The notes: generated by a model from the letters alone, not told the origin. A stretch of DNA of 32,000 bases from an uncultured Actinomycetota bacterium (GCA_963760105.1 CAVXBP010000014.1:56787-88786), one strand, 5' to 3'; positions 8,995 to 28,667 are shown, counted from the first letter of the stretch. Numbers and translations are program-made.

Positions 8995-9027
8995 AGATGT
9001 CTCCACAGCAATTGGCTGCCCACATCT
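8995..9027 (+). terminator. Weak nested hairpin just after the oxidoreductase stop
   Basis: AGATGT (8995-9000) pairs with ACATCT (9022-9027), enclosing CAGC (9006-9009) and GCTG (9015-9018). No U-tract follows. Confidence 0.25.
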
Positions 9028-9070
9028 CTGACAACAGCGTCACTGACAGCCCAGTTCAGGAGTCCGACCG

Positions 9071-11935: not shown

Positions 11936-13015
11936 GTCGGCGAGACCAGCGCTCCTCGATCTTGCCGAACCGCCAGATCGCGCTGCTCACCGCCCACGTC
12001 AGCCACGAACAGCACCACGATCGCGTAGCCGACGCGATCAAGATCGATGCCTCCGATCCACGCAATGGGACCGGAAGTGAGGCCGAGCTTGTCGCTGAGC
12101 AGCCCCACCAGCTCGACGCCGCCGATGGCCAACGCCACGACGACCGACAGGCCCGTCACGGTGATGTTGTAATAGACCTTGCGGACGGGCCGGAGAAACG
12201 CCCAGTCGTACGCGAGGCCCATGAATGCGCCGTCGATGCTGTCGAACAGGCTCATGCCTGCGGTGAACAGGATCGGCAGCACCAACAGCGCATACCAAGG
12301 CATGTGGAACGCGGCCGCGCCAGCAGCAAGGACCAGAAGTGAGACCTCGGTTGCCGTGTCGAATCCGAGCCCGAACAGCAGTCCCACGCCATACATGTGC
12401 CGTGGTCTGCTGACTGATCTGGTGAACCGTCCGAGCAGTCGGTTGAGCAGGCCACGGTTTTGGAGCTGGCGTTCGAGCTCGGCCTCGTCATAGACACCTG
12501 CGCGCATGTTGCGCGCGACCCGCAGCACGCCGACGAGAACCACGGCGTTGATCAGACCGATCGTGATGAGGAACAGTCCGGAGACGCTGGTTCCGATCAC
12601 TCCGGCCGACTGCTGCAACGTCGAGGACTCGTCGGAGACCTGGCCACCCAGGGCGCGAACGCCGAACGACAGGAGCAGACACAGACCGAAGACAACGCTG
12701 GAGTGTCCCAACGCAAACCAGAAGCCGACCGACAAGGGGACGGCCGGCGTCGGGGTTGTCAGCCAAGAGCTTGCGGGTGACGTTGTCCACTGCTGCGATG
12801 TGGTCGATGTCGAATGCGTGGCGCATGCCCAGTGTGTAGGCGGTGACACCGAGCCCGATGCCGAACAGCCCGGTCTTGCCGAGCTCAAGCTGCTGTGCGG
12901 CGACCACGAACAGCAGACCCCAGCCGATCACGTGCAGCATGACGACCGCCACGGTCATGCCACCGAGGGACCGTCTCTCGGTGTGGGTCAGGCCGCGCAT
13001 CGCTGTCGTCGACAT
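11922..13015 (-). pseudogene. HoxN/HupN/NixA-family nickel/cobalt permease (NiCoT) interrupted by two +1 frameshifts
   Basis: The frame from ATG 13015 gives the signature HAFDIDHIAAVDNVTRKLL...GRPL. The conserved continuation SVGFWFALGHSSVV... is in another frame, with the shift at plus-strand GGGG 12736-12739. The C-terminus LTWAVSSAIWRFGKIEERW is in the third frame, with the shift near 12003-12004. The span is 1094 nt, which equals 364 codons plus 2 nt. Confidence 0.85.
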
Positions 13016-13053
13016 GGATTCTCCGGTGATCTGGATATCAGCCACCGTACTCA

Positions 13054-13071
13054 GATGCGACGATGTTGCAA
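13054..13071 (-). promoter_or_regulatory. Nur-box-like motif upstream of the NiCoT gene
   Basis: The minus strand reads TTGCAA-catcg-TCGCAT, compared with the remembered Streptomyces Nur consensus tTGCaa-N5-ttGCAA. The second half-site matches only 4 of 6. It lies 39-56 nt upstream of ATG 13015. Confidence 0.2.
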
Positions 13072-13088
13072 CAGGGCCGAATGATGAT

Positions 13089-13544
13089 TCAGGCCTGCGC
13101 GGCACACTCCGCACACATTCCGAGGAAGGCCGCGTGATGGACGGCGACTCGAAAACCAATGTCATCGCGCAGCGTACGAGCCAGAGGCTCCAGCACTGAC
13201 TCGTCGATGTCGATGATCCGATTGCAGGTCGTGCACTGGACGTGCGCGTGGCCGGGCTCCGGGTGGTCTTCACCCGGCAGCGCGAGGTGATAGATCGTGG
13301 CGGATCCGGCCACATGCGTGTGCGAAACCAGGCCGAGGTCGCCCAAGGTTGTCAGGGCGCGGTAGACCGTGGTGCGGTGCACTCCGGGCGCCGAGGCGGT
13401 CGCCCGCAACGCAATGTCGTCGGCCGTCAGATGCTCTGCGGTCGAGTCGAGGACCTCGACAACGGCGCGCCGGGCGGCCGTTACGCGTTCACCCTGACGC
13501 CGCAGCATGGCGATGGCCTGGTCGGCTCGACCCGTCGTGTCCAT
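13089..13544 (-). CDS. Fur-family metalloregulator (Nur-like by context only)
   Basis: 151 aa with a winged-helix N-terminus (RTTVYRALTTL) and a His-rich metal site (HTH...HPEPGHAH). It has two CxxC pairs (CTTC, CAEC) typical of the Fur structural Zn site. Confidence 0.85.
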   Translation of the reverse strand: MDTTGRADQAIAMLRRQGERVTAARRAVVEVLDSTAEHLTADDIALRATASAPGVHRTTVYRALTTLGDLGLVSHTHVAGSATIYHLALPGEDHPEPGHAHVQCTTCNRIIDIDESVLEPLARTLRDDIGFRVAVHHAAFLGMCAECAAQA

Positions 13545-13628: not shown

Positions 13629-13958
13629 ATGCACGAACTCTCCATCGCCGAGGCGGTCGTCGAGGCAGTTCTTGATCGCACCGGCGACCAGCAGGTGACT
13701 GTCGTCCGGCTCGACGTCGGAAAGCTCTCGGGGGTGGTGCCCGAGGCGTTGTCGTTCTGCTTTGAACTCGTCACCGCCGGCACGTCGCTTGAGGGCTCTG
13801 CTCTGGAGATCATCCACACCGCAGGTCTGGCGCACTGCCGCGGTTGCGACCGCGACTTTCACAAGGACGACCTGATCTTGCTGTGCGAGTGTGGAAGTGC
13901 CGATGTCGAGGTGGTGGCCGGACAGGAGTTGTCGGTCACCTCAGTGGAGGTGGCGTAG
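13629..13958 (+). CDS. hypA: Hydrogenase nickel-insertion metallochaperone HypA
   Basis: MHELSIAEAVV N-terminus (the MHE Ni site) and zinc motifs CRGC...CECG. Length is 109 aa. Confidence 0.9.
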   Translation: MHELSIAEAVVEAVLDRTGDQQVTVVRLDVGKLSGVVPEALSFCFELVTAGTSLEGSALEIIHTAGLAHCRGCDRDFHKDDLILLCECGSADVEVVAGQELSVTSVEVA

Positions 13959-14759
13959 ATGTGCGCAACATGTGGATGCGGCGAAGCCGAGGTGCGGGTC
14001 GACGGGGCGACGGGGGATTACCTTCACGTGCACGCGGACGGCACCGCGCACAGTCACGGCCCCGATCACGAGCATCCGCACGATCACGAGCACGAGCACG
14101 AGGTGCCCGCCCCCCATACGCACTCGATCGACCTTGAAGTTGCCGTGCTTGCCAAGAACGACCAATTGGCCGGTGACAACCGCACGTGGTTGCGGGAGCG
14201 CGGCATCGCGGCACTCAACCTCATGAGCTCTCCGGGCGCCGGCAAGACCTCGCTGCTGGAGCGGACAATCCGCGAAGCCGGACCTGACCGCCAGATCTGT
14301 GTCATCGAAGGTGACCAGGAAACGGCATATGACGCCGACCGCATCAGAGCCGCAGGTGCCCGAGCCGTCCAGATCAACACCGGCTCCGGGTGCCACCTCG
14401 ACGCCTCGATGGTGCGCCGCGGGCTCGACTCTCTGGGACCAGACGATGGCGATCTGGTCGTGTTGGAGAACGTCGGAAACCTCGTCTGTCCGGCCCTGTT
14501 CGATCTGGGCGAGACCAAGAAGGTCGTGGTCATCTCGGTGACCGAGGGGGACGACAAGCCGCTGAAGTACCCCCACATGTTCGCGGCCGCCGACCTGGTC
14601 GTCGTCAACAAGACCGACCTGCTGCCCTACGTCCAGTTCGACGTCGACCGGTGCGAGAAGGACGCCCGCAGCCTCAACCCGGACGTCACCTGGATGCCCT
14701 TGAGTGTCCAGACTGGCGAGGGTCTGGACGCCTGGTACGGCTGGCTGCGCGAACTTTAA
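13959..14759 (+). CDS. hypB: Hydrogenase nickel-incorporation GTPase HypB
   Basis: N-terminal CATCGC (CxxCGC), a His-rich tract, the P-loop SSPGAGKTS, and ENVGNLVCP and NKTDL motifs. Its ATG directly abuts the hypA stop. Confidence 0.95.
   Translation: MCATCGCGEAEVRVDGATGDYLHVHADGTAHSHGPDHEHPHDHEHEHEVPAPHTHSIDLEVAVLAKNDQLAGDNRTWLRERGIAALNLMSSPGAGKTSLLERTIREAGPDRQICVIEGDQETAYDADRIRAAGARAVQINTGSGCHLDASMVRRGLDSLGPDDGDLVVLENVGNLVCPALFDLGETKKVVVISVTEGDDKPLKYPHMFAAADLVVVNKTDLLPYVQFDVDRCEKDARSLNPDVTWMPLSVQTGEGLDAWYGWLREL
14025..14123 (+). other. His-rich nickel-storage tract within HypB
   Basis: 12 His in 33 residues (HVHADGTAHSHGPDHEHPHDHEHEHEVPAPHTH), encoded by reiterated CAC-GAn codons. Confidence 0.8.
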
Positions 14760-14950: not shown

Positions 14951-16006
14951 ATGCCAACTGCCGAGGCGATCAAAGCGGAAGAAACCCTGATTCACGTCCT
15001 GTGGATCAACGCCGGATTGAGTTGCGACGGGGACTCGGTCTCCCTGACAGCCGCAACCCAGCCCAGTATCGAAGAGATTGCGATGGGCGCCCTCCCGGGC
15101 CTCCCGCAGATCGCGGTGCATTGGCCGCTGATCGACTTCGAGTGTGGCCCAGAGGGAGGTGCAGACGACTTTCTTGAGTGGTTCCACAAGGCAGATCGTG
15201 GCGAGTTGGAGCCGTTCGTCCTTGTCGTGGAGGGATCAATCCCCAACGAGGCACTCCACGACGAGGGCTATTGGTGTGGCTTCGGCAACGACCCCGCGAC
15301 CGGCCAGCCCCGTACGACGAGTGAGTGGCTTGATCGACTCACCCCCAAGGCGACGGCCGTTGTCGCAGTCGGCACCTGTGCGACATACGGCGGCATCCAC
15401 GCGATGGCCGGCAACCCCACCGGCGCGATGGGTGTTCCTGACTATCTCGGCTGGGACTGGAAGTCCAAGGCCGGCATCCCGATCGTCTGTGTTCCCGGTT
15501 GCCCGATTCAGCCCGACAACCTGTCCGAGACCCTGACCTACCTGCTTTACATGGCCACCGGCCAGGCGCCGATGATCCCCTTGGACGAGGCCCTGCGACC
15601 CACGTGGTTGTTCGGCTCGACCGTCCACGAAGGTTGTGACCGCGCGGGCTATTACGAGCAGGGTGACTTCGCGACCGAGTACGGCTCGCCCAAGTGCATC
15701 GTCAAGCTCGGCTGCTGGGGCCCGGTCGTCAAGTGCAATGTGCCCAAGCGTGGCTGGATGAACGGCATGGGTGGTTGTCCCAACGTGGGCGGCATCTGCA
15801 TCGGCTGCACGATGCCGGGCTTCCCCGACAAATTCATGCCGTTCATGGACGAGCCGCCGGGAGGCAAGTTGTCGACCGCTGCGGTCCAGCCGTATGGCAA
15901 GACGATGCGTTTCCTGCGATCCAAGACAACGGCAACGCTCAACAAGGAACCCAAGTGGCGCAAGCCCGGCAAGACGCTGACCACCGGCGCCAAGAAGACC
16001 TGGTAG
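14951..16006 (+). CDS. hhyS: [NiFe]-hydrogenase small subunit, group 1h/5 type (no Tat signal)
   Basis: FeS-ligand motifs SCDGDS, GTCATYGG, VPGCPIQP, HEGCDR, CIVKLGCWGPVVKC and CPNVGGICIGC. The N-terminus lacks an RRxF Tat motif. No in-frame start lies upstream of 14951 (stop at 14867). Confidence 0.9.
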   Translation: MPTAEAIKAEETLIHVLWINAGLSCDGDSVSLTAATQPSIEEIAMGALPGLPQIAVHWPLIDFECGPEGGADDFLEWFHKADRGELEPFVLVVEGSIPNEALHDEGYWCGFGNDPATGQPRTTSEWLDRLTPKATAVVAVGTCATYGGIHAMAGNPTGAMGVPDYLGWDWKSKAGIPIVCVPGCPIQPDNLSETLTYLLYMATGQAPMIPLDEALRPTWLFGSTVHEGCDRAGYYEQGDFATEYGSPKCIVKLGCWGPVVKCNVPKRGWMNGMGGCPNVGGICIGCTMPGFPDKFMPFMDEPPGGKLSTAAVQPYGKTMRFLRSKTTATLNKEPKWRKPGKTLTTGAKKTW

Positions 16007-16036: not shown

Positions 16037-17833
16037 ATGACGTCGACCATCCCAAGTCCCAGCAGCAGGAGCGTCAACAAAGATGGCCTGGTCGAGATGG
16101 CGTGGGACCCCATCACCCGCATCGTCGGCAGCCTCGGCATCTACACCAAGATCGACTTCGAGAACAAGACGGTCGTGGAGTGCCACAGCACGAGCTCGAT
16201 CTTCCGTGGCTACTCGATCTTCATGAAGGGCAAGGACCCTCGCGACGCGCACTTCATCACGAGCCGCATCTGTGGCATCTGCGGTGACAACCACGCCACC
16301 TGCTCCTGTTACGCGCAGAACATGGCCTACGGCGTCAAGCCGCCGAACATCGCGGAGTGGATCGTCAACCTCGGCGAGGCCGCCGAATACATGTTCGACC
16401 ACAACATCTTCCAGGAGAACCTGGTCGGCGTTGACTACTGCGAAAAGATGGTCTCCGAGACCAACCCCGAGGTGCTTGAGCTGGCCAACAACACGCCAGC
16501 ACCGCACGGCGGTGATCACGGTTACAAGACGATCGGCGACATCATGCGCTCGCTCAACCCGTTCACGGGGGAGTTCTATCGCGAGGCGCTCGTGGTCAGC
16601 CGCTACACGCGCGAGATGTTCTGCCTGATGGAGGGCCGCCACGTTCACCCGTCGACCCTCTACCCGGGCGGAGTGGGCACGGTCGCGACGATCCAGCTGA
16701 TGACCGACTACATCACGAGGCTCATGCGCTACGTGGAGTTCATGAAGAAGGTCGTTCCGATGCACGACGACCTGTTCGACTTCTTCTACGAGGCGCTCCC
16801 GGGCTACGAGCAGGTGGGCAACCGCCGCATCCTCCTTGCGTGCTGGGGCTCCTTCCAGGATCCCGATCACTGCAACTTCGACTACAAGGACATGACCAAC
16901 TGGGGTCGCAAGATGTATGTCACGCCGGGCGTCGTGGTCGATGGCAAGCTCGTCACGACCGACCTGGTGGAGATCAACCTCGGCATCCGCATCCTGCTTG
17001 GATCGTCCTACTACGACGACTGGGAGGACCAGGAGACATTCGTCAAGAACGACCCGCTGGGCAACCCGGTCGACCGTCGCCACCCGTGGAACCAGCACAC
17101 CAACCCCAAGCCGCAGAAGCGCGACCTCGATGGGGGCAAGTACTCCTGGGTCATGTCGCCGCGCTGGTTCGACGGCAAGGACTACCTCGCGCTCGACACC
17201 GGTGGTGGACCGTTGGCGCGCCTGTGGTCCACCGCCCTCGCCGAGCTGGTGGACATCGGCTACGTGCAGTCCACCGGGCACAGCGTCAAGATCAACCTGC
17301 CCAAGACCTCGCTCAAGCCCCCGATGGAGCTGGAGTGGAAGGTCCCACGGTGGAGCAACACGATCGAGCGCAACCGCGCCCGCACCTACTTCCAGGCCTA
17401 CGCGGCGGCGTGTGCCCTGCACTTCGCGGAGAAGGCACTCGAGGAGATTCGGGCCGGTCGCACCAAGACTTGGGAAAAGTTCGAGGTGCCGGACGAGGGC
17501 ATTGGCTGTGGCTTCACGGAGGCAGTTCGCGGCGTTCTGAGCCACCACCTGGTCATCCGGGACGGCAAGATCGCCAACTACCACCCCTATCCGCCGACTC
17601 CGTGGAACGCCAACCCGCGCGACTCCTACGGCACCCCCGGTCCGTACGAGGACGCGGTCCAAGGCCAGCCGATCTTCGAGAAGAACGACCGCGAGCACTT
17701 CAAGGGCATCGACATCATGCGTACGGTGCGCAGTTTCGACCCGTGTCTGCCCTGCGGTGTGCACATGTACCTCGGAGAAGGACAGACCCTCGAGAGACTG
17801 CACTCGCCGACGCAGTCTGCCGGCACCGAATAG
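16037..17833 (+). CDS. hhyL: [NiFe]-hydrogenase large subunit, group 1h/5 (high-affinity, actinobacterial type)
   Basis: L1 TSRICGICGDNH and L2 SFDPCLPCGVH match the published group 5 signatures exactly. Length is 598 aa. A 22-aa extension follows the terminal His, which is the protease substrate. Confidence 0.95.
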   Translation: MTSTIPSPSSRSVNKDGLVEMAWDPITRIVGSLGIYTKIDFENKTVVECHSTSSIFRGYSIFMKGKDPRDAHFITSRICGICGDNHATCSCYAQNMAYGVKPPNIAEWIVNLGEAAEYMFDHNIFQENLVGVDYCEKMVSETNPEVLELANNTPAPHGGDHGYKTIGDIMRSLNPFTGEFYREALVVSRYTREMFCLMEGRHVHPSTLYPGGVGTVATIQLMTDYITRLMRYVEFMKKVVPMHDDLFDFFYEALPGYEQVGNRRILLACWGSFQDPDHCNFDYKDMTNWGRKMYVTPGVVVDGKLVTTDLVEINLGIRILLGSSYYDDWEDQETFVKNDPLGNPVDRRHPWNQHTNPKPQKRDLDGGKYSWVMSPRWFDGKDYLALDTGGGPLARLWSTALAELVDIGYVQSTGHSVKINLPKTSLKPPMELEWKVPRWSNTIERNRARTYFQAYAAACALHFAEKALEEIRAGRTKTWEKFEVPDEGIGCGFTEAVRGVLSHHLVIRDGKIANYHPYPPTPWNANPRDSYGTPGPYEDAVQGQPIFEKNDREHFKGIDIMRTVRSFDPCLPCGVHMYLGEGQTLERLHSPTQSAGTE

Positions 17834-17840
17834 GTTCGCG

Positions 17841-18764
17841 ATGACGCAGCACGAGCTGCTTGATCACGGACCGGACCTGAGCCAGACCGGCGAGCGCATC
17901 GACGCCCTTCTCACCGCCAGCGCGACCGGCGGGACCGTCGCCCGCGAACGAGCCGAAGAGCTCGTTCGGCTCGTCACCGATCTCTACGGGGCGGGGCTCG
18001 AGCGCATGATGGAGATCTTGTACGAGACCGGCCGCCTCGGTGACGACCTTTTGGCAGCCTTGGCCGGCGATGAGCTCGTCTCGGGCCTGATGCTGGTTCA
18101 CGGGCTTCACCCCTACAGCGTGATCCAACGCGTCGAGGATGCCCTCGAAGAGGTTCGCCCCTACCTCGGGACGCACGGCGGAGATGTCGAGCTGCTCGAC
18201 GTGACCGACGAGGGCGTTGTGCACCTGCGTCTGCTCGGCAGCTGTGACGGGTGTCCCTCGTCATCGGTCACGCTGAGTCTCGCCGTCGAAGGCGCCATCA
18301 TGGCTGCGGCACCCGAGGTGATCTCGATCGACGTCGAGGAGGCCACCGCATCAACGCAGGAGTCGAACGGCGTGATCTCGGTCGACTCGTTGATGTCGCG
18401 GCTCAAGGTCGACACCCCCACGGGCGCCGACTGGCATGTCCTGCCTGAGCTCTCCGCCGGCGAGGTGTCGTCGGTCGCCGTTGGCGGTCTGCAGCTGCTG
18501 GTGTGCCGCATCGCGTCTGACCTGTTCGCGTTCGTCGACCGTTGCGCCAGGTGTGAAGCAAGTCTCGCGGACGGATCGCTCGCGCGGCGCCTCGGCGGTG
18601 GCATCGGCGATGCGCTGCTCAAGTGTCCGTCGTGTCAGGTGCACTACGACGTACGCAAGGCAGGGTCGTGCGTCGACATCCCTGAGCTGCACCTCAAGCC
18701 CTTGCCCGTGCTTGCCGATGGCGGCATCATCTCGGTGGCAGTTCCGGCGACTGAGGTGGCATGA
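17841..18764 (+). CDS. Hydrogenase-associated FeS protein: NifU-like domain plus Rieske-fold-like 4-Cys C-terminal domain (HhyE-like)
   Basis: NifU C-terminal-type segment VRPYLGTHGGDVELLDV...LLGSCDGCPSS. The C-terminal domain has CARC-x23-CPSC where a Rieske protein has CxH...CxxH. It starts 7 nt after the hhyL stop. Confidence 0.7.
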   Translation: MTQHELLDHGPDLSQTGERIDALLTASATGGTVARERAEELVRLVTDLYGAGLERMMEILYETGRLGDDLLAALAGDELVSGLMLVHGLHPYSVIQRVEDALEEVRPYLGTHGGDVELLDVTDEGVVHLRLLGSCDGCPSSSVTLSLAVEGAIMAAAPEVISIDVEEATASTQESNGVISVDSLMSRLKVDTPTGADWHVLPELSAGEVSSVAVGGLQLLVCRIASDLFAFVDRCARCEASLADGSLARRLGGGIGDALLKCPSCQVHYDVRKAGSCVDIPELHLKPLPVLADGGIISVAVPATEVA

Positions 18765-19417
18765 GCACGCCGGGCCGCGGGCAGTCTCCGCTGGCGAGTT
18801 TGCGGCGCATCTCCACGACCAGACCAGCACCGACGGCCGACGAACGGTGCGAGATGTGCGCCAAGTCGATCGGCCACGACCATCAGCACGTCGTGGGGCT
18901 CGAGAGCCGAACCCTGATGTGCACCTGCAGGCCGTGCTACCTGTTGTTCACCGAGCAGGACGCCAACATCCGCTACAAGGCGGTGCCCGATCGCTACCTG
19001 AGCTTCCCCGACTTCGCGTTCGATCAGGGTGCGTGGGACGACCTGCAGATTCCGGTCGGGTTGGCCTTCATCTTCCGCAACTCGGTCGAGGATCGCGTGG
19101 TGGCGTTCTATCCGAGTCCGGCCGGCGCAACGGAGTCTGAGCTGTCGTTGGAGGCCTGGGACCGGATGGTCTCGACCAACCCGCAGTTTGATCTTTTGCT
19201 CTCGGACGTCGAGGCGCTGCTGATCTATCGCGGCGATCACGGCCGAGGCGACTTTCATTGCGCTCTCGTCCCGATCGACATCTGCTACGAGCTCGTCGGC
19301 ACGATGCGGATGACATGGCGTGGCTTCGACGGTGGGTCGGAGGCCCACGCCGCGATGGATGAGTTCTTCGCGACGGTCGAGGGCCGCAGCAAGCTGGCGC
19401 CGGCGGTGTCGGTATGA
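18761..19417 (+). CDS. Conserved hydrogenase-cluster protein of unknown function with an N-terminal Cys/His metal motif (DUF5947-like from memory)
   Basis: 218 aa with CEMC...GHDHQH...CTCRPC. ATGA overlaps at both ends. Confidence 0.6.
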   Translation: MSTPGRGQSPLASLRRISTTRPAPTADERCEMCAKSIGHDHQHVVGLESRTLMCTCRPCYLLFTEQDANIRYKAVPDRYLSFPDFAFDQGAWDDLQIPVGLAFIFRNSVEDRVVAFYPSPAGATESELSLEAWDRMVSTNPQFDLLLSDVEALLIYRGDHGRGDFHCALVPIDICYELVGTMRMTWRGFDGGSEAHAAMDEFFATVEGRSKLAPAVSV

Positions 19418-20055
19418 GTCGCTACGAGTTCAGCATCCTCGACGTGTTTGCGGAGCCGTACGCCGCGACGCCGCAGCTGACTGCGCGCCTGCGCATCCAG
19501 GAGGACACCGGCACGATCGTGCATGCCATTGCGCTGCGCTGCCAGGTGCGCATCGATCCGCAGCGACGCGGCTACGACGACGATGAGGCCACCGATCTGC
19601 GGGCCCTGTTCGGTTCGCGTGAACGGTGGTCGGACACCCTGCGTCCGTTCCTGTGGATGCAGTGCAGCACCACGGTCCAGGGATTCTCCGGCGTCACCGA
19701 GGTCGACCTGCCGATGCCGTCAACCTACGACTTCGATGTCGTCGGGTCCCGCTACATGCACGCCGTTGGCGAAGGTGCCGTGCCGCTGTCGTTCATGTTC
19801 TCGGGTGTCGTGTTCACCAAGGGAACCAACGGTTTCGCGGTCGAGCAGGTGCCGTGGGACTGCGACACGAGTTACCAGATGCCGGTGGCTGTCTGGCGAC
19901 AGATGATCGAGATGTACTACCCGGGCACCGGCTGGATGCGTCTTGATCACGACGTGATGTCGGCTGTGAGCGCCTATCGGACCGACCATGGTCTGACTTC
20001 CTGGGAAGAGACGCTCAACCACCTGCTCGAGGCGCGCAGGGAGGTCCCATCATGA
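19414..20055 (+). CDS. Conserved hydrogenase-cluster protein of unknown function (DUF6084-like from memory)
   Basis: 213 aa with coding-like composition. ATGA overlaps at both ends. Confidence 0.55.
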   Translation: MSRYEFSILDVFAEPYAATPQLTARLRIQEDTGTIVHAIALRCQVRIDPQRRGYDDDEATDLRALFGSRERWSDTLRPFLWMQCSTTVQGFSGVTEVDLPMPSTYDFDVVGSRYMHAVGEGAVPLSFMFSGVVFTKGTNGFAVEQVPWDCDTSYQMPVAVWRQMIEMYYPGTGWMRLDHDVMSAVSAYRTDHGLTSWEETLNHLLEARREVPS

Positions 20056-21476
20056 AGCTCGACCTGGCCCGATCAGTCGCCGATGCGGTGCTCTACGAGG
20101 GCTACCTCCTCTACCCCTACCGAGCGAGCTCGAGCAAGAACCAGTCGCGCTGGCAGTTCGGCGTCGTCAGCCCGGCGGACGCGGAGGCCCGCGGGCTGGG
20201 CGAGGCGTCGTCGATGTCGATGCAGTGCCTCGTCGCGGGTGAGCTCGACGCCGACGCATCATTCGTGCTGCACGTGCGTTTCCTTCAGCTGCAACGTCGT
20301 CAGGCGCTCAACACAGCCGGACAACCTGTCGCGGAGATCGTCCTGGGTGACACGACCTGGATGAGCTGGGACGAAGCCGTTGACCAAGAAGTTTCGTTCA
20401 CGATCGCGGCATCTGAGCTTGCCAACGGGGTGAGCCTGCAGGTCGAGGTGGCTGCGGGCGAAGACCTCGAACCACTGGTGGATGGGTCGGGCGTGACCGC
20501 CGGTACGATCGCGCGCCGCCGCCAGCCCATCTCGGCCGAAGTCCGCGTCGGCATGGAGCCGGTCGACGGGTTGCAGCGCCTCAGCCTCGAGCTCGAGAAC
20601 GTCAAGGCGGGCCCGACGATCGACAAGAACGATGCGATCGCACACTCACTGATCGGCACCCACGTCATCATCGAGGCCCACGGACCGACATTCGTCTCGC
20701 TCCTGGAGCCGCCCGACGACGTGAGCGCCGCTGTCGCGGCCGGCTGCGAGCAACGCAGATGCTGGCCAGTCCTCGGCGGAGCGCCCGGCGACACCGACCT
20801 CCTACTCGGCCTGCCGATCATCTTGTACGACTATCCCGAGATCGCCGAGCAGAGCACAGGTGCGTTGTTCGACTCGACCGAGATCGACGAGATCCTGACC
20901 CTGCGCGTGATGACCATGACCGACGAGGAGAAGGCGGAAGCCCGGGCCACCGACCCACGAGCTCGCGAGATCATCGATCGCTGCGACGAGATGTCGCCCG
21001 AGTCGATGCAGGCCATGCACGGCATCCTGCGCGATCCCGGTGCGCTCGACGGCGCAGCGCCGTCGCCGATTGCTGAGCCCGACTGGCCCGTGCTCAGCGA
21101 CATACGCGACCTCGATCCGCCCAGCTTCGAGACCGGGGACTCTCCGTGGTGGGACCCCGAGCAGGATGCCGCCGTCGCCCCCGAGACCGATGCTGTCGTC
21201 ATCGACGGAGTCACCGTCGCCAAGGACAGCCTGGTGCGGGTGCACCCCAACCGGCGCGCCGATGCGCACGACATGTTCTTCGACGGTCAGATTGCCAAGG
21301 TCACTGCTGTGCTGAGCGATGTGGACGGGGGCACGCACCTGGCCGTCGTGCTGGTCGACGACCCGGCCGCCGACATGCACGAGTGGTACGGCCGCTACCT
21401 CTACTTCGCGCCGGACGAGCTCGAGCCCATGCCGATCGACTACGCCCACAACGCAAGAGAGGAGATTCGCCCATGA
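20052..21476 (+). CDS. Conserved hydrogenase-cluster protein of unknown function, 474 aa, acidic
   Basis: Long ORF, ATGA-coupled at both ends. N-terminus LYEGYLLYPYRASSSKNQSRWQFGVV. No catalytic motif was recognised. Confidence 0.6.
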   Translation: MKLDLARSVADAVLYEGYLLYPYRASSSKNQSRWQFGVVSPADAEARGLGEASSMSMQCLVAGELDADASFVLHVRFLQLQRRQALNTAGQPVAEIVLGDTTWMSWDEAVDQEVSFTIAASELANGVSLQVEVAAGEDLEPLVDGSGVTAGTIARRRQPISAEVRVGMEPVDGLQRLSLELENVKAGPTIDKNDAIAHSLIGTHVIIEAHGPTFVSLLEPPDDVSAAVAAGCEQRRCWPVLGGAPGDTDLLLGLPIILYDYPEIAEQSTGALFDSTEIDEILTLRVMTMTDEEKAEARATDPRAREIIDRCDEMSPESMQAMHGILRDPGALDGAAPSPIAEPDWPVLSDIRDLDPPSFETGDSPWWDPEQDAAVAPETDAVVIDGVTVAKDSLVRVHPNRRADAHDMFFDGQIAKVTAVLSDVDGGTHLAVVLVDDPAADMHEWYGRYLYFAPDELEPMPIDYAHNAREEIRP

Positions 21477-21592
21477 GAACAGTTGGCCTCATCACCACAG
21501 GCGTCGGAGTCGTGATCCTCGCGGCCGCCGTGATCGTCCTGCTGATGTCACTTTCCGACATCTCTCGTTACCTCAAGATCCGCAAGATGTGA
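21473..21592 (+). CDS. 39-aa single-pass membrane peptide
   Basis: MRTVGLITTGVGVVILAAAVIVLLMSLSDISRYLKIRKM. ATG 21473 overlaps the upstream stop (ATGA). AGAGAGGAG lies 7-15 nt upstream. One hydrophobic helix is followed by a basic tail. Confidence 0.55.
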   Translation: MRTVGLITTGVGVVILAAAVIVLLMSLSDISRYLKIRKM

Positions 21593-21622
21593 CTTCTCCC
21601 AACAGATGAAGGTGGATGAACC

Positions 21623-22120
21623 CTGAGCATCTCGATCCTGGTTGCCGGTATCGGCAACATCTTCCTCAGCGACGACGGCTTCGGCTCCGAAGTCGCCCGG
21701 CTGCTGCTCGCGGACGCCTCGGACCTGCCCGACGGCGTCGAGGTGGTCGACTACGGCATCCGGGGCATGCACCTCGCATACGACCTGCTCGACGGTTGTG
21801 AGGCACTCGTCATCGTTGACGTGCTTCCTGGAGACGGGGCGCCGGGTGATGTCGTCGTGATGAGCGTCGGCCCCGATGACATCGGAACCGGCGAGCTCGA
21901 CGCTCATGGCATGGATCCCCTCGCGGTGCTCGGCAGTCTGCAGGCACTCGGCGGCACCCTCCCTCCCACCTATGTCGTCGGGTGCCAGCCTGCCAACCTC
22001 GACGAGGGCATGGGCCTCAGCACCGAGGTGGCCGCGGCGGTGCCGGTTGCCATCGACGCCGTCCTGCGCGTCATCCGCGAGCGCATTCACACCCCAACCA
22101 CCCAGATGAGTGAGGCCTGA
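21623..22120 (+). CDS. hupD: [NiFe]-hydrogenase maturation endopeptidase (HupD/HybD/HyaD family); start unresolved
   Basis: ILVAGIGNIFLSDDGFGSEV...VDYGIRGMHLAYDLL...DAHGMDP. The conserved N-terminus lies upstream of the first ATG/GTG in frame (21743). Candidates are CTG 21623, 6 nt after GAAGGTGGA, or ATG 21616 if one C of CCC 21621-21623 is spurious. Confidence 0.8.
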   Translation: MSISILVAGIGNIFLSDDGFGSEVARLLLADASDLPDGVEVVDYGIRGMHLAYDLLDGCEALVIVDVLPGDGAPGDVVVMSVGPDDIGTGELDAHGMDPLAVLGSLQALGGTLPPTYVVGCQPANLDEGMGLSTEVAAAVPVAIDAVLRVIRERIHTPTTQMSEA

Positions 22121-22122
22121 TC

Positions 22123-22386
22123 ATGTGTCTTGGCATACCGGGACAAATTGTCGAAATCGTGGAGGGCTTCGCCGATCAACTTGCCCTCGTCGACGTCGAG
22201 GGCGCGAAACGCAAGATCAACATCGGCATGCTCGAGGAGAAGCCGGTGGCCGGCGACTGGATCCTGATCCACATGGGGTTCGCATTGGAGCTGATCGACG
22301 AGACGAAGGCCGAAGAGGCCATCACAGGGCTGGAGATGATGGGACAAGCGCGCGAGGACGCGGAGCCGGAGGTGCGCCGTGGCTGA
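22123..22386 (+). CDS. hypC: Hydrogenase assembly chaperone HypC/HupF
   Basis: MCLGIPGQIVEI N-terminus with the essential Cys2, and GDWILIHMGFA. Length is 87 aa. Confidence 0.9.
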   Translation: MCLGIPGQIVEIVEGFADQLALVDVEGAKRKINIGMLEEKPVAGDWILIHMGFALELIDETKAEEAITGLEMMGQAREDAEPEVRRG

Positions 22387-23206
22387 CACGATGATCCGCC
22401 CTCCCCGCGTGCCCGTGTCAGGCCCCGTGCTGTTCGCGCGTTATGCCTTTCCGCCCAACTCGCACGGTTACTGCGGCCCCGCAGATCACGGGTCCTTCTT
22501 TGAACAGAGCGCCGTGGGTGCGGCAGCCGGCACGGTGAGCAGCGACGTCGACACGGGATTGAGGCACCTGTCCCAGCAGTTCGAAGGTGCCTGGCCATAC
22601 CTTCAACTCATCGCGGCGGAGCTCGGAATCGATGATCCGCTGGACCGCCGTGTCGTCGACGCCTACTGGGTCGGCAATTCGCGTCTCAACCAGGTCTCGA
22701 CCCGCGCCATCGGCGACTCGATGGAAGAACGGTTCCGTTTCCGCGCCGGGCCCGGATTCGATGCCCTCACAGACAGTGTGGTCGCCGGCGGGGTGCCGCA
22801 CCACAGTTTCGTCGTGTTCTGCATCTACCCGTGGACCGGACTGCTCAGCGACGGTCGAAAGGCTGAGCAGGCGCTGACTGTGCTTGACCAGTGCCGCATC
22901 CGCTGGGGCAAGGTGATCGCCGTCCAAGGTGACCAGGTGGTCGTCGAGTCGACCCCCCTCGTGTGGGACGGACACCTCCTCGCACTGGGTGACCGGATCA
23001 CCGAAACCGTCACCCGCGCCGTCGATGGCACCAGCCTGATAGGTGACGTCATGCCCGGTGACTGGGTCTCCCTGCACTGGGAGTGGGTCTGCGACGTGTT
23101 GAGCCAGCGTCAGGTCCGTTACCTCCGCGACTTCACGGTGCGTCACCTGCGCATCGTCAATGAAGGCAATTTGCACAAAGGACCGAGCGCCCTCCTGGGC
23201 ACCTGA
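22379..23206 (+). CDS. Unknown hydrogenase-cluster protein with a HypC-like C-terminal domain (DUF6390-like from memory)
   Basis: 275 aa with N-terminal FPPNSHGYCGP. Residues ~172-240 (CRIRWGKVIAV...GDWVSLHWEW) parallel HypC's CLGIPGQIVEI...GDWILIHMGF. The start is GTG 22379 (8-nt overlap with hypC) or ATG 22391. Confidence 0.6.
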   Translation: MADTMIRPPRVPVSGPVLFARYAFPPNSHGYCGPADHGSFFEQSAVGAAAGTVSSDVDTGLRHLSQQFEGAWPYLQLIAAELGIDDPLDRRVVDAYWVGNSRLNQVSTRAIGDSMEERFRFRAGPGFDALTDSVVAGGVPHHSFVVFCIYPWTGLLSDGRKAEQALTVLDQCRIRWGKVIAVQGDQVVVESTPLVWDGHLLALGDRITETVTRAVDGTSLIGDVMPGDWVSLHWEWVCDVLSQRQVRYLRDFTVRHLRIVNEGNLHKGPSALLGT

Positions 23207-23220: not shown

Positions 23221-24333
23221 ATGACCCCCCAGCCGGAGGCACTGCCCCGCAGAACCCTATTGAAGGGGGCTGTCGCACTGGGCGGCGTCGCCTTCCTGTC
23301 CGCGTGTGGTTCGTCGTCGTCGGACGCGGGCTCCGAAGCGATTGCCGTTACGGACCAACGAGGCAAGAAGTTGACACTCGACGGACCGGTCAAGCGCATC
23401 GTGACGCTGCCGATGCCTGCCGCGTCCATAATGATCGCGGTCGATCGCAGCGCAAAGCATCTCGCCGGAGTGCACGATGCCTCCTACGCCGCGGCCGAGC
23501 AGAGCATTCTGGGCACGATGTTCCCGGAGGTGCTCAAGGTTCGCCACGATGTCGGCTCACAGGACTTCGCCCCCAACGTCGAGGGCATCCTGTCGCTCAA
23601 ACCCGATCTCGTGGTCCAGTGGGCGAGTCAGGGCGACGAAATCATCCAGCCTCTCGAGAACGCCGGGTTGACTGTCCTGGGAGTCAACTACGGCAAGCTG
23701 GAGGATGTCGGAGACTGGTTCAAGATGTTCTCCGCCGCGCTCGGCAAGCCATCGCGGGGCACGGAGATGGCTGGCCGGCTGGCGTCCGACCAGGCAGTCA
23801 TCAAGACTGCCGCGGTCAAGAGGGGAGCGCGTGCGCCGCGCACCCTCTACTTCAACCGGTTCGCCGAGAGCCTGACCGTGGCGGGCGGCGGGACCTTCAA
23901 CGATGCGTACATCCAACTGATCGGTGCCGAGAACGTCGCAACTGGGGTGAAAGGGCTGATGCCGGTTGACCTTGAAAAGGTCCTGGACTGGGATCCGGAG
24001 ATCATCGTGCTGGGCAACTTCGACAAGTCCATGCCGGCCGATGTCTACGGTGACCGCCGTTGGCGCGATGTCGCGGCAGTCAAGGAGCGGAGGGTCTACC
24101 GAGCGCCGCTGGGCGGTTACCGCTGGGACCCTCCCAGCCATGAGTCACCGTTGATGTGGACCTGGCTCTCGCAGGTCGCGTTCCCGGACGGCACGGACGG
24201 CGGACTGCGCGACAAGATTGTCGACGACTACAAGTACTTCTACGACCACAGCCCAACGCAGACCGAGATTGACACCATGCTGTGGACGGAGGAGAACGGT
24301 GCCTCCGCCGACTACGACCAGTTCTCGGCCTGA
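23221..24333 (+). CDS. ABC importer substrate-binding lipoprotein, FecB/BtuF/CeuE class (metal-chelate type), Tat-like signal
   Basis: PRRTLLKGAVALGGVAFLSAC (twin-Arg motif plus lipobox). Peripla_BP_2-like body (RIVTLP..., KPDLVVQW, DPEIIVLGN). It starts 14 nt after the previous stop with a GAAAGGAAAAG RBS. Confidence 0.8.
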   Translation: MTPQPEALPRRTLLKGAVALGGVAFLSACGSSSSDAGSEAIAVTDQRGKKLTLDGPVKRIVTLPMPAASIMIAVDRSAKHLAGVHDASYAAAEQSILGTMFPEVLKVRHDVGSQDFAPNVEGILSLKPDLVVQWASQGDEIIQPLENAGLTVLGVNYGKLEDVGDWFKMFSAALGKPSRGTEMAGRLASDQAVIKTAAVKRGARAPRTLYFNRFAESLTVAGGGTFNDAYIQLIGAENVATGVKGLMPVDLEKVLDWDPEIIVLGNFDKSMPADVYGDRRWRDVAAVKERRVYRAPLGGYRWDPPSHESPLMWTWLSQVAFPDGTDGGLRDKIVDDYKYFYDHSPTQTEIDTMLWTEENGASADYDQFSA

Positions 24334-24382
24334 GGACGTAGCGCCGAGGTCAGCCCCCGTCACAGGTCGAGTAGGAGGGCCG

Positions 24383-25378
24383 TTGGCCGTCGTCGTTGCC
24401 GGGATCGTCCTGCTGGCGGCAATTGTGGTGGCTGTCTCGCTCGGTCGCTACACCGTGTCGGTTCCGCATGTGCTGCAGATCCTGGCATCAGGGGTTCTCC
24501 CCGACGGCGGGGTCACCGACACGGAGCGGACTGTTGTTGAGCTCGTACGCCTTCCCCGCGTCATGCTCGCCGTGCTGGTGGGTGGTGGCCTGGGCGTCGC
24601 CGGGGCGGCCCTGCAGGCGACCTTCCGCAACCCGTTGGTCAGCCCCGACATCATCGGGGTCTCCTCGGGCGCATCCCTCGGCGGCGCATTGGCGCTGTTG
24701 TTTGGCCTCGGCACGGCGTTTCTCGTCGCCGGCGCGTTCGTGTTCGGACTCATCGCACTTGGCCTCCTGTTCGCGCTCACGGCCGGCCGGGCCTCGTCGA
24801 TGCTCATGGTGGTGCTCGGTGGTGTCGTACTCGGTTCGTTCTTCTCCGCACTGGTCGGGCTGGTGCAATATTTCGCCGACCCTTATTCGTCGCTGCCCGC
24901 GATCGTGTTCTGGTTGCTCGGCAGCCTCGCCACAGCCACCTGGGCGAAGGTCTTCGTGGCCGCGGTGCCGATCCTGCTCGGCACGACGGTTGTCCTGCTG
25001 CTTCGCTGGCGCCTCAACGTGCTTTCGCTAGGGGACGAGGAGGCGTCATCGCTCGGGATTCGCCCCAACCGGCTGCGCTGGGTGTTCCTGCTGTCCTGCG
25101 CACTCATCGTCGCCGGAGCGGTCGCGGTGAGCGGTGCCGTCGGTTGGGTGGGTCTGGTGATCCCGCACCTGGCTCGTATGTGGGTCGGACCTGATCACCG
25201 GGTCCTCCTACCGGTCAGCTTCCTGCTCGGAGCCACCTTCCTTATCCTGATCGACACGATCGCCCGGACGGCAACGGCCGGCGAGATTCCGCTCGGTGTG
25301 CTGACGGCGCTGCTCGGTGCGCCGGTGTTCTTCGTGCTGTTGCGGCGCAACCGGGACAGGATTTGGGACCATGCTTGA
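24383..25378 (+). CDS. FecCD/BtuC-family ABC permease
   Basis: LPRVMLAVLVGGGLGVAGAALQATFRNPLVSPDIIGVSSGASLG and IPLGVLTALLGAPVFFVLLRR. TTG 24383 is the first start after the SBP stop and follows AGGAGG (24373-24378). The 24218 start in the ORF track would overlap the SBP gene by 116 nt. Confidence 0.8.
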   Translation: MAVVVAGIVLLAAIVVAVSLGRYTVSVPHVLQILASGVLPDGGVTDTERTVVELVRLPRVMLAVLVGGGLGVAGAALQATFRNPLVSPDIIGVSSGASLGGALALLFGLGTAFLVAGAFVFGLIALGLLFALTAGRASSMLMVVLGGVVLGSFFSALVGLVQYFADPYSSLPAIVFWLLGSLATATWAKVFVAAVPILLGTTVVLLLRWRLNVLSLGDEEASSLGIRPNRLRWVFLLSCALIVAGAVAVSGAVGWVGLVIPHLARMWVGPDHRVLLPVSFLLGATFLILIDTIARTATAGEIPLGVLTALLGAPVFFVLLRRNRDRIWDHA

Positions 25379-26141
25379 GTTGGACGCGGTGGGGTTCAGA
25401 TATCCCGGGTCCGACTGGGTCTTCCGCAACGTCAGCCTGACTGTCGCGGAGGGGGCCGTCACGGCTGTGCTCGGTCCCAACGGCCGCGGCAAGACGACTC
25501 TCATACGATGCGCGGCAGGCTTGGCGAAACCGCAGGAGGGTCAGGTCAAGAACGACGGATCCGTCGGGTTCGTCCCCCAGACACGAGCCGGTGCATTCGC
25601 CTATCGGGCCATCGACATGGTCGTGATGGGCAGGGTGCGGCAGGTGAGCCTGTTCGGCTCGCCGACTCGCGGTGATCACGTTGCCGCGATGGATGCGATG
25701 GAACGCATCGGCATCGGTCACCTTGCCGATCGACAGTTCCCGACGTTGAGCGGAGGCGAGCAGCAGCTCGTCCTGATCGCACGGGCGATCGCCTCGGAGT
25801 CCCCGCTGCTCATTCTGGACGAACCGACGACGGGACTTGACCTGCACAACCAGGCACAGATCCTGTCGTTGCTGCGCAAACTCGTCGCAGACGGCATGGG
25901 TGTGCTTCTCACGACCCATCACCCTGACCACGCGCTTTATCTCGCTGACGTTGTCGTGCTGATGGGTGGCGGAGGCGACGTCCGAGCGGGCCCCGCGGCA
26001 ACGATGCTTTCCGATGTCGAGCTGAGTCGCCTCTACGGCATCGACGTGCAAACGATCACGTACGGCCACCGCGGCGACTCGCGGCGCGCCATCATCACGA
26101 GGTATGACGACGTGCTGGGGTCAGGTTTCATCGACACCTGA
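25371..26141 (+). CDS. ABC transporter ATPase (FecE/BtuD-like)
   Basis: Walker A GPNGRGKTT, signature LSGGEQQ, Walker B LLILDEPT and the TTHH H-loop. It overlaps the permease stop by 8 nt. Confidence 0.9.
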   Translation: MLELDAVGFRYPGSDWVFRNVSLTVAEGAVTAVLGPNGRGKTTLIRCAAGLAKPQEGQVKNDGSVGFVPQTRAGAFAYRAIDMVVMGRVRQVSLFGSPTRGDHVAAMDAMERIGIGHLADRQFPTLSGGEQQLVLIARAIASESPLLILDEPTTGLDLHNQAQILSLLRKLVADGMGVLLTTHHPDHALYLADVVVLMGGGGDVRAGPAATMLSDVELSRLYGIDVQTITYGHRGDSRRAIITRYDDVLGSGFIDT

Positions 26142-27170: not shown

Positions 27171-28667
27171 ATGGCAAAGAGTTCACCGTCCCAGCGTCCG
27201 CACGTCGTCGTCGTCGGAGGCGGATTCGGTGGCATTGCCGCTGTTCGCAAGCTCAAGCGCGCCGATGTCGACGTCACCTTGATCGACCGTCACACCTACA
27301 ACACCTTCCAGCCGCTGCTGTACCAAGTCGCCACGGCAAGCCTCAACCCCGGCGACGTGACGTGGTTCCTCCGAGCGATCCGGGCCAAGCAGAAGAATGT
27401 GCGCTTCATGAAGGGCACGGTCCTGACGATGGACCACGCCAACAAGACGTTGGGCCTCGAGAGTGGGCTCACGGTCTCGTACGACCACCTGATCGTGGCG
27501 GCCGGTGTCACGACCAACTTCTTCGGCGTTCCGGGCGCCGAAGAGTTCTCGATGCCGCTCTACAAGCGCTCGCAGGCCCTGGCCGTACGCGACCGGATGT
27601 TTGCCGCGCTCGAGAACGCCGTCATCAACCGAACTGACGAAGACCTGCGCATCGTCGTCGTCGGTGGCGGCGCGACCGGCGTCGAGACCGCTGGCGCCTT
27701 CGCCGAGCTGCGCAACAATGACATGCCGACGACCTACCCGGAGCTTGACCCCAAGCGCATCCACATCACGCTGGTCGAGATGGGGCCGCACGTGCTGGCG
27801 CCCTTCCACCCCAACCTGCGTGAATATGCCCGCAAGGCGCTGGAGAAGCGCGATGTCGACCTGCGTCTTGAGACGACGGTCAAGGAGGTCCGCAGCGACG
27901 GCGTGGTCATCGCCAAGGGCGACGAGGAAGAGTTCTTGCAGGCCGGCATCGTGGTGTGGGCCAGTGGAGTCACGGCCCACAGCACGCTCCAGGACTGGAA
28001 TGTGCCGCAAGGCCGCGGTGGCCGCATCGTGACCGGCAACCACTGGGATGTCGAGGGTCTCGAGGATGTCTACGCGATTGGCGACATCGCGATCAGCCCA
28101 GAGGCTCTGCCTCAGCTGGCGACACCGGCCATCCAGGCGGGCAAGCACGTCGCGAAGCTGATCGACCGCGCCCAGGACGGCAAGTCGATCAAGGCGTTCA
28201 AGTACCGCGACAAGGGCACGATGGCGACGATCGGCCGCGCATCGGCGATCGCCCAGATCAAGGGCCTGCCCCGACTCAAGGGATTCCCGGCATGGTTCAT
28301 CTGGGTCGCCCTCCACGTCGCAACCCTGCTCGGCAACCGCAACCGGTTCGCCACGATGATCAACCTGACCGCCAAGTACCTTTCGTGGGGTAGCCACAAT
28401 GCGATTGTCGGAGAGACCCCGCTCGTGATCGCCAACCACCCGACGACCGTCAGTGCACTCGAGCAGCGTTACGGCGAGGGCAAGTCGCGTGCCGGCGCCA
28501 AGAAGGCAGCGGCCAAGAAGGCAGCTTCGGCGAAGCCTGCCGCCAAGAAGTTGGCGGCCAAGACTTCGGCCAAGAAAGCTCCTGCCAAGGCTGCCGCCAA
28601 GAAGGCCCCGGCCAAGCCGGACACGACGCCGCCGGCTCCCAAGAAGGCCTCCGCCAAACGCTCCTAG
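27171..28667 (+). CDS. ndh: Type II NADH:quinone oxidoreductase (NDH-2) with a basic low-complexity C-terminal tail
   Basis: VVVVGGGFGGIAA and IVVVGGGATGVETAG dinucleotide motifs, plus FQPLLYQVA and YAIGDIA. The core is ~440 aa, followed by a 60-aa AKP-rich tail. Confidence 0.9.
   Translation: MAKSSPSQRPHVVVVGGGFGGIAAVRKLKRADVDVTLIDRHTYNTFQPLLYQVATASLNPGDVTWFLRAIRAKQKNVRFMKGTVLTMDHANKTLGLESGLTVSYDHLIVAAGVTTNFFGVPGAEEFSMPLYKRSQALAVRDRMFAALENAVINRTDEDLRIVVVGGGATGVETAGAFAELRNNDMPTTYPELDPKRIHITLVEMGPHVLAPFHPNLREYARKALEKRDVDLRLETTVKEVRSDGVVIAKGDEEEFLQAGIVVWASGVTAHSTLQDWNVPQGRGGRIVTGNHWDVEGLEDVYAIGDIAISPEALPQLATPAIQAGKHVAKLIDRAQDGKSIKAFKYRDKGTMATIGRASAIAQIKGLPRLKGFPAWFIWVALHVATLLGNRNRFATMINLTAKYLSWGSHNAIVGETPLVIANHPTTVSALEQRYGEGKSRAGAKKAAAKKAASAKPAAKKLAAKTSAKKAPAKAAAKKAPAKPDTTPPAPKKASAKRS
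28485..28664 (+). repeat. Imperfect tandem GCC-AAG-AAG-type codon repeats encoding a Lys/Ala/Pro-rich tail
   Basis: SRAGAKKAAAKKAASAKPAAKKLAAKTSAKKAPAKAAAKKAPAKPDTTPPAPKKASAKRS. Confidence 0.75.

Follow-up and report, generated by a model that had tools for sequence, protein, structure and literature searches.

An accessory gene set conserved behind group 1h hydrogenase genes and its possible role in enzyme assembly

We analyzed a 32,000-nucleotide (nt) stretch of DNA from an uncultured Actinomycetota bacterium (GCA_963760105.1 CAVXBP010000014.1:56787-88786; 65% G+C), referred to here as the window, which carries the genes of a group 1h [NiFe]-hydrogenase. Directly behind hhyL, the large-subunit gene, lie five open reading frames (ORFs), here called o1 to o5, which are flanked by maturation genes, with hypA and hypB upstream and an endopeptidase (protease) gene and hypC downstream (Table 1). 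Among biological sinks for atmospheric H2, group 1h hydrogenases are the main one. As specialists are aware, genes of the o1 to o5 type are standing candidates for a part both in building these enzymes in air and in connecting them to the respiratory chain. A preliminary description of this DNA had singled out the five ORFs as a chain and characterized their products as a NifU/Rieske-like protein, a Cys/His protein, two unknowns, and a transmembrane peptide. The coordinates proved exact: at all four junctions the ATG of the next gene overlies the TGA of the previous one in an ATGA overlap of 4 nt, and these are the sole 4-nt overlaps among about 19 same-strand junctions in the window. The characterization of the products was likewise borne out by Pfam matches, Cys/His ligands, and hydrophobicity. 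All five ORFs display the G+C bias at third codon positions that is typical of genuine genes, and purine runs resembling Shine-Dalgarno sequences lie upstream of o2, o4, and o5.

The hhyL product contains both group 1h motifs as worded in PMC5364354, L1 (TSRICGICGDNH) and L2 (SFDPCLPCGVH), and its closest solved relative is Cupriavidus necator HofG (5AA5_C; E=0, 1096 bits), the sole PDB match below 1e-50. Inspection of the N terminus of the hhyS product revealed no visible twin-arginine signal. The gene set behind hhyL is the already described accessory set of group 1h hydrogenases, and the window provides a new instance of it in an Aeromicrobium-like genome, Aeromicrobium being the source of the closest relatives of the window proteins. 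The genes that follow HhyE, the counterpart of o1, are PHG067-069 in C. necator and MSMEG_2717-2715 in Mycobacterium smegmatis, already noted as conserved next to hhyLS, and in Thermomicrobium the genes after hhyLS have been named "conserved hypothetical proteins hhaABC." All of these belong to the same families as o2 to o4 in the same order (DUF5947, DUF6084, and a family without a Pfam model), with hhaA, hhaB, and hhaC assigned one-to-one to o2, o3, and o4 by gene order only. In a comparative paper from 2026 they still figure only as hypothetical proteins shared by Rhodococcus equi, M. smegmatis, and C. necator. Transcriptomes of C. necator place PHG066 and PHG067, along with hypE2, hypF3, and PHG070, in the group of genes with the highest expression. 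The actinobacterial set differs in having a DUF6893 peptide between o4 and the protease gene, whereas the proteobacterial sets couple o4 directly to the protease gene. The earlier label of an "uncharacterized hydrogenase module" thus overstated the novelty of the locus, since HhyE has been studied by deletion and hhaABC had been noted. New here are the conservation of the overlaps, the natural fusions o1::o2, o3::o4, and o1N::o3 (o1N being the N-terminal domain of o1), a shared core devoid of conserved Cys, the loss of the o1 Fe-S motifs in several lineages, and the absence of o2 from one.

A scan with HhyL yielded 80 actinobacterial loci from Streptomyces, Mycobacterium, Nocardia, Rhodococcus, Arthrobacter, Actinoplanes, Modestobacter, and other genera, and these formed the sample for our synteny comparison (loci and proteins are given below by our own L and P numbers where needed). 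The order hhyS-hhyL-o1-o2-o3-o4-(o5)-protease-hypC recurs in essentially every locus with enough downstream DNA, even though o1 to o4 are 39-76% identical to the window proteins, compared with 85-92% for HhyL. Within this sample, the o1/o2 junction allows a 4-nt overlap in 63 of 78 loci, the o2/o3 junction in 73 of 79, and the o3/o4 junction in 78 of 79; by contrast, hhyS/hhyL allows one in only 4 of 79 and protease/hypC in 9 of 76. The o4/o5 junction is less fixed, with a spacing of -4 possible in 27 of 61 loci, and an alignment-guided choice of start gives -4 in 23 and -13 in 12. Plasmid pHG1 of C. necator and a Methylocystis plasmid keep the order o1-o4 after the structural genes, without o5. 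There, a 1-nt overlap or short gap follows the large-subunit gene, the accessory genes overlap each other by 4 or 8 nt, and the o4 homologue overlaps the endopeptidase gene by 4 nt. Translational coupling of the accessory module to the protease gene occurs in several lineages. Judged from sequence, the ATGA overlaps are more than chance, and translational coupling is a conserved, selected feature of the module.

The layout of o1 helps to distinguish what is constant in the module from what is variable. The protein comprises an N-terminal helical domain (residues 1-95, nt 17841-18125), an Nfu domain (residues 98-163; Pfam NifU, E=5.4e-23) bearing C135xxC138, and a Rieske-fold domain (residues 203-299; Pfam Rieske, E=2e-5, 24.7 bits against a cutoff of 20.3). 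The ligand positions of the Rieske-fold domain are occupied by C235xxC238 and C262xxC265, the two CxxC motifs of HhyE, as opposed to the Rieske CxH...CxxC of HucE. A canonical Rieske [2Fe-2S] protein was ruled out because these positions hold CxxC and CxxC rather than CxH...CxxH. Like HhyE and HucE (MSMEG_2718 and MSMEG_2268; Islam et al. 2019, PMC6883350), o1 is characterized by its place after hhyL, an Nfu CxxC, and a C-terminal CxxC pair; we found no difference of substance between o1 and HhyE, of which it is an orthologue. The Fe-S motifs are present in 69/69 full-length actinobacterial homologues examined. In seven Micromonosporaceae-type loci from Actinoplanes, Paractinoplanes, and Asanoa (L005, L014, L019, L024, L028, L060, and L061), however, o1 is only 138-201 residues long and lacks the Rieske-like domain, the Nfu CxxC is also gone in the four that were translated, and HhyL is still 87-92% identical to that of the window. 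The CxxC motifs are missing as well from C. necator PHG066, from the Methylocystis homologue, and from L087, and PHG066 scores as a NifU fold yet has no Cys in its NifU region. A hidden Markov model of o1 residues 1-95 nevertheless matched PHG066, the Methylocystis homologue, and the fusion proteins described below at E=1e-11 to 1e-24, and did not match o2 to o4. Truncated forms of HhyE, and species without HhyE altogether, were reported by Islam et al. (PMC6883350); the present analysis adds that the conserved part of the HhyE family is the N-terminal helical domain and not the Fe-S motifs.

The product of o2 matches Pfam DUF5947 over nearly the whole profile (positions 1-176 of 177; E=2.8e-72, 242.5 bits against a threshold of 25). 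Its Cys/His residues, C30xxC33...H41xH43...C54xC56xxC59 and C175 (the N-terminal part encoded at nt 18848-18937), are invariant in 61 homologues, and also in Cupriavidus, Methylocystis, and the fused forms, and thus from Actinobacteria to alpha- and beta-Proteobacteria. They form a strictly conserved putative metal site, which presumably holds a metal. An AlphaFold2 (AF2) model of o2 (predicted local distance difference test, pLDDT, 78.6; predicted template modeling score, pTM, 0.75) gave no significant fold match when compared with PDB using Foldseek, with nothing below E=0.045.

Natural gene fusions offer an independent view of which proteins work together. We sought them among the longer matches to the DUF6084 profile, which at 50% identity fall into 1697 clusters, using the 50%-identity representatives. 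Two short-read assemblies that are independent of each other (L086 and L087) contain a clean DUF6084::o4 fusion of 765 residues (P0406), and the preceding gene at this locus encodes a 375-residue fusion of o1 (N-domain plus a Cys-less Nfu-like region) to DUF5947. In two further proteins (P0436 and P0480), about 110 residues of the o1 N-terminal helical domain are fused to DUF6084, in at least three assemblies (L085, L090, and L091). These pairwise fusions, which join o1 to o2, o1N to o3, and o3 to o4, argue along with the conserved coupling of translation for a single complex made in fixed proportion, and they suggest that the four soluble proteins o1 to o4 behave as one complex. The preliminary description had read the overlaps as translational coupling with a probably fixed stoichiometry, and this proposal is strengthened by the conserved overlaps and the fusions alike. 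Most other apparent fusions were frameshift artefacts: P0425, P0476, P0411, P0496, P0490, P0415, and others were rejected because they decay into Arg/Pro/Ala-rich out-of-frame sequence, P0392 (o2::o3) was discarded because its contig L092 has other split genes, and merged ORFs in L002 and L054 are untrustworthy. A near-identical metagenome contig with the same locus (L083; ENA ERZ25039476 contig_57631) has split DUF6084 and FecCD genes and shortened NicO and HypB genes. These look like assembly indel errors, and they are a reminder that genes overlapping by 4 nt are easily fused or split by errors of assembly.

One of the fusion-bearing loci shows which parts of the module are shared. In L090, whose HhyL is 74% identical to that of the window with the group 1h motifs intact, the genes run hhyS-hhyL-[o1N::o3]-o4-protease-hypA, all overlapping, and DUF5947 is absent from the whole 11.4-kb cluster. 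The idea that this loss accompanies changed Fe-S ligands in HhyS was rejected, as L090 HhyS keeps all of its Fe-S ligand Cys. Because L090 lacks DUF5947, the shared core of the module reduces to the o1 N-domain, o3, and o4, and in this core no Cys or other recognizable redox-cofactor ligand is conserved across lineages; C150 of o3 and C311 of o4 are invariant among close relatives and are not kept in L090.

We favor the reading, to which we assign a probability of about 0.5, that o1 to o5 encode a multi-protein complex of fixed stoichiometry which is specific to group 1h hydrogenases and serves in their assembly or as a scaffold, with optional Fe-S add-ons and a conserved metal site on o2. In this scheme, translation of o1 to o5 as a coupled chain would yield one multi-protein complex in which the universal core serves as a cofactor-less scaffold or chaperone. 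The core would act while the hydrogenase is being made or shortly afterward, at a stage that follows cofactor insertion by HypA, HypB, and HypC and precedes cleavage by the endopeptidase. To this, o2 would contribute its strictly conserved Cys/His metal site, and o1 in most Actinobacteria would add Fe-S-binding Nfu and 4-Cys domains that could hand over clusters or protect them in air, the direction of any such transfer being a matter of conjecture; o5, finally, may hold either the complex or the enzyme at the membrane. The absence of a conserved Cys or redox ligand from the core shifts the weight from an electron acceptor toward an assembly or scaffold complex. The analysis also singles out the DUF5947 metal site and the DUF6893 peptide as the two candidate parts for redox and tethering functions. 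Should the complex serve in assembly, its co-expression may be necessary for obtaining active O2-insensitive hydrogenases in other hosts.

Alternatively, the module may be a redox partner and tether that docks on mature Hhy and passes electrons from the distal cluster of HhyS via o2 and/or o1 to menaquinone, with o3 and o4 as scaffold and o5 as anchor. Deletion of hhyE (MSMEG_2718) in M. smegmatis lowers H2 oxidation, for which HhyE is needed, and MSMEG_2717/PHG067 has been proposed as an acceptor (PMC6883350). Such a partner would also make sense of the Cys/His motif of o2 that is invariant from Actinobacteria to Proteobacteria, and of M. smegmatis Hhy, which is membrane-associated without a transmembrane segment and has no established path to menaquinone. 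It is nonetheless unlikely that an electron relay is obligatory, given that the core has no conserved Cys, that several lineages lack the o1 Fe-S motifs although they share 85-92% HhyL identity with the window, and that o2 is missing from one lineage. An obligatory wire through o1, o3, or o4 in particular is not tenable on the sequences compared. Nor do o1 to o4 include a subunit of the cytochrome b type for electron transfer or anchoring, having no transmembrane-grade segment, no hydrophobic region like a quinone site, and, in o3 and o4, no conserved Cys. Further points against it are the location of the module amid maturation genes, its coupling to the protease gene, and the absence of the analogous HucE from purified Huc. 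If any part of the module carries electrons or a metal universally, the candidate is o2, which one lineage nevertheless does without. We therefore consider a redox partner and tether unlikely: such a role is weakened overall and still possible for o2 and o5. The preliminary description had named an electron relay, a tether, and a dedicated assembly machine as candidate functions; the relay loses ground to the Cys-less core and the dispensable Fe-S motifs of o1, while an assembly machine and a tether by the transmembrane peptide stay viable.

The case for a tether centers on o5, which belongs to Pfam DUF6893 (E=2.2e-11, 44 bits against a threshold of 24.6) and holds the only stretch of transmembrane-grade hydrophobicity in the module (KD19 2.78). 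It ends in a conserved basic tail, ...S[IL]PD[IA]xRY[LM][KR][IM]RxM-COOH, which by the positive-inside rule should be cytoplasmic and so on the Hhy side. A DUF6893 peptide occupies the position between o4 and the protease gene in 75 of the 80 actinobacterial loci, in one copy each except in L072, an actinobacterial metagenome-assembled genome with a tandem pair of such genes after o4 (15531-15775). It follows the protease gene in L086 and L092, and it is absent from C. necator, Methylocystis, L090, and HucE-type loci. The C. necator group 1h enzyme has been described as cytoplasmic. Thus, o5 occurs in Actinobacteria, where Hhy is membrane-bound, and is absent where the enzyme is cytoplasmic, which makes it the best candidate for a tether, with one organism known on each side of this comparison. 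The module and its DUF6893 peptide may be the missing coupling device of these hydrogenases, in which a scaffold of novel fold docks mature Hhy at the cytoplasmic face of the membrane via the basic tail and delivers electrons to menaquinone via the DUF5947 Cys/His center. This would explain why the C. necator enzyme, purified without these proteins, is soluble and has no known physiological acceptor, but we regard it as quite unlikely. Schafer et al., in 2013 and 2016, reportedly purified and crystallized that enzyme as HofK/HofG only. In the lineage with fused accessory genes, the DUF6893 peptide is followed by a gene of the YceI family (L086, 4252-4873). This family includes polyisoprenoid- and quinone-binding proteins, and the neighbor is a possible lead on quinone coupling.

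The two remaining core proteins are o3 and o4. The product of o3 is a member of Pfam DUF6084 (E=2.5e-92, 308.6 bits against a threshold of 25). The o4 product matches no Pfam or NCBIfam model, its weak Pfam match to a phage tail assembly chaperone family (E=0.061) being treated as noise, and has more than 8000 homologues, including P0035, annotated as "Uncharacterized protein MSMEG_2715" (59% identical over 100% of the query). With PHG069, found at the same position after DUF6084, it shares 33.7% identity over 96% of the query, which places it in the MSMEG_2715/PHG069 family. Paralogy between o3 and o4 was rejected (hhalign probability 0.9%), and neither single-sequence nor profile searches found PDB homologues of o2 to o4. 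In an AF2 model of o4 built from a 61-sequence alignment (mean pLDDT 75.6), a beta-rich core at about residues 40-250 is predicted with very high confidence, and the C-terminal part forms a small SH3-like barrel at about residues 380-460, for which Foldseek returned SH3-like matches (PetP, BAH). The sole significant Foldseek matches of o4 in PDB were to DrmA of the DISARM anti-phage system (7s9v_A/7s9w_A; E ~2e-7, 326-341 aligned columns), from which we draw no interpretation at a template modeling score of 0.24. The most conserved segments of o4, residues 16-41 and 255-302, contain invariant columns and are poorly modeled by AF2, a pattern that may be that of regions folding on a partner.

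Two further explanations were considered. The first is that the complex is a stabilizer or regulator that binds finished Hhy in order to protect, store, or oligomerize it during persistence or sporulation, with no role in cofactor insertion or electron transfer. A core free of cofactors, the large invariant segments of o4 left unplaced by AF2, and a coupling that looks stoichiometric are all compatible with such a function, as is the 5.5-fold increase of hhaABC in starved T. roseum together with the structural genes. We judge this distinctly unlikely, however, as a stable complex is not evident in the sole solved enzyme (5AA5), the invariant metal site of o2 and the Nfu domain of o1 would be left unexplained, and coupling to the protease gene suggests action at an earlier stage. 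The second is an enzymatic role in which o4 catalyzes the making or repair of an active-site component under air, as a source of a ligand or a means of repair. The invariant polar residues of o4 (E16, Y18, Y21, Y23, R24, K29, N30, R33, W34, and Q35; T276-V286) form strings that resemble a site for binding or catalysis more than a passive scaffold, and hypX is reportedly not present in every high-affinity H2 oxidizer. Yet o4 shows zero similarity to enzyme families by Pfam, NCBIfam, PDB sequence and profile searches, or Foldseek, and the idea is purely speculative; we consider it very improbable.

Comparison with other hydrogenases places the favored assembly or scaffold complex in context. The membrane-bound hydrogenase (MBH) operon of C. 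necator pHG1 also carries enzyme-specific accessory genes behind its structural genes (encoding an annotated HypC-family protein, HoxO, a rubredoxin, HybE, and HoxV; hoxLOQRTV). Like o1 to o5, these genes lie between structural and hyp genes, serve an O2-tolerant hydrogenase, and include two junctions with 4-nt overlaps. Unlike the MBH, however, group 1h enzymes have no twin-arginine signal for chaperones to guard, and the MBH accessory proteins have no sequence or profile similarity to o2 to o4; homology of o2 to o4 to the pHG1 MBH accessory and Hyp proteins was rejected by hmmsearch and hhalign (best probability 3.5%). In the HucE-type clusters found on plasmids of Thermus and Bradyrhizobium, the gene for HucE, the paralogue of HhyE, is flanked by the protease gene and hypF; these clusters contain an NHL-repeat gene and lack DUF5947 and DUF6084. 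Purified Huc consists of three subunits, HucE not being among them, and in a 2023 review from the Huc laboratory (PMC10657181) the paper on HucE and HhyE is cited under "additional assembly and maturation proteins." As for the membrane and the menaquinone pool, a possible functional analogue of a tether is HucM, the membrane-associated stalk of Huc, likened here by function only: HucM co-purifies with Huc, whereas o1 to o5 are likened to it from genes alone.

Several points weigh against an assembly or scaffold complex. On native gels, M. smegmatis HhyE reportedly migrated together with HhyL and HhyS, and the authors favor an electron-acceptor role for it (PMC6883350); the retention of the Fe-S motifs in every full-length actinobacterial o1 examined likewise leaves room for a redox role in these lineages. 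A search of o2 to o4 for similarity to known [NiFe] maturation factors, represented by the pHG1 proteins (HypA-F, HypX, HoxL/O/Q/R/T/V, and HoxM), found none, and the literature reports no maturation phenotype for o2 to o4. Synthesis of a chaperone in near-stoichiometric proportion to its client would also be somewhat unexpected. Furthermore, the binding of the complex to immature HhyS and HhyL is a step that we infer, and confidence in the o2 and o4 models is only moderate (pLDDT 76-79).

Table 1. Genes of the hydrogenase operon, with positions counted from the first letter of the window.
Feature	Position	Strand	Evidence or product
hypA (Ni metallochaperone), first gene of the + run	13629..13958	+	Pfam HypA E=2.7e-28; MHE start at 13629
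hypB (His-rich N terminus, CobW/HypB GTPase)	13959..14759	+	Pfam cobW E=3e-25
hhyS, group 1h small subunit	14951..16006	+	Pfam Oxidored_q6 and NiFe_hyd_SSU_C; aligned with HofK and other small subunits
hhyL, group 1h large subunit	16037..17833	+	Pfam NiFeSe_Hases; L1/L2 motifs; 5AA5 HofG E=0
o1, HhyE	17841..18764	+	307 aa
o2, DUF5947 (MSMEG_2717/PHG067)	18761..19417	+	218 aa
o3, DUF6084	19414..20055	+	213 aa
o4, MSMEG_2715/PHG069 family, without Pfam model	20052..21476	+	474 aa
o5, DUF6893 single-pass membrane peptide	21473..21592	+	39 aa
Hydrogenase maturation endopeptidase (HycI/HupD type), probable CTG start 21623	21623..22120	+	Pfam HycI E=2.8e-13 on 21743-22120 ORF
hypC	22123..22386	+	Pfam HupF_HypC E=1.9e-22
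DUF6390 gene, 8-nt overlap with hypC	22379..23206	+	Pfam E=1.1e-90

Scans of the operon for promoters and terminators gave nothing useful, with no convincing terminator within the run, and an Rfam scan returned zero family matches. The endopeptidase gene has an unusual start. No ATG, GTG, or TTG lies upstream of the conserved N terminus ILVAGIGN; after an in-frame stop at 21617-19, the first plausible start is the CTG at 21623, 6 nt past a strong Shine-Dalgarno-like AGGTGGA. A 6-codon mini-ORF runs from an ATG at 21606 to a TGA at 21624-26, and its end overlaps this CTG. The endopeptidase genes of L001 and L002 have the same arrangement of a Shine-Dalgarno sequence, about 7 nt, and CTG, and a protease without a canonical start occurs in 4 of 77 related loci with a recognizable protease N terminus, in addition to the window.

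Other neighbors may be related to the hydrogenase or to electron transfer more generally. Many related loci, and L092 as well, have a DUF6390 homologue next to hypC or a few kb downstream of it, and this is probably a further hydrogenase-linked family of uncharacterized role. Divergent from hypA, on the - strand (11929-13544), are genes for a NicO nickel transporter and a Fur-family regulator, which probably provide nickel supply and control for the hydrogenase. Directly downstream of the operon (23221-26141) is a siderophore-type ATP-binding cassette (ABC) importer (Peripla_BP_2, FecCD, and ABC ATPase), which adjoins the operon in L092 too, and beyond it lies a gene for a type II NADH dehydrogenase (27171-28667). 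Further upstream, on the + strand (5876-11935), a group of genes encodes a DUF3556 membrane protein, an amine-oxidase-like flavoprotein, an FMN_bind protein, an ApbE flavin transferase, and a 531-residue protein with C-terminal FAD/NAD-binding reductase domains; together, these look like a flavinylated electron-transfer system.

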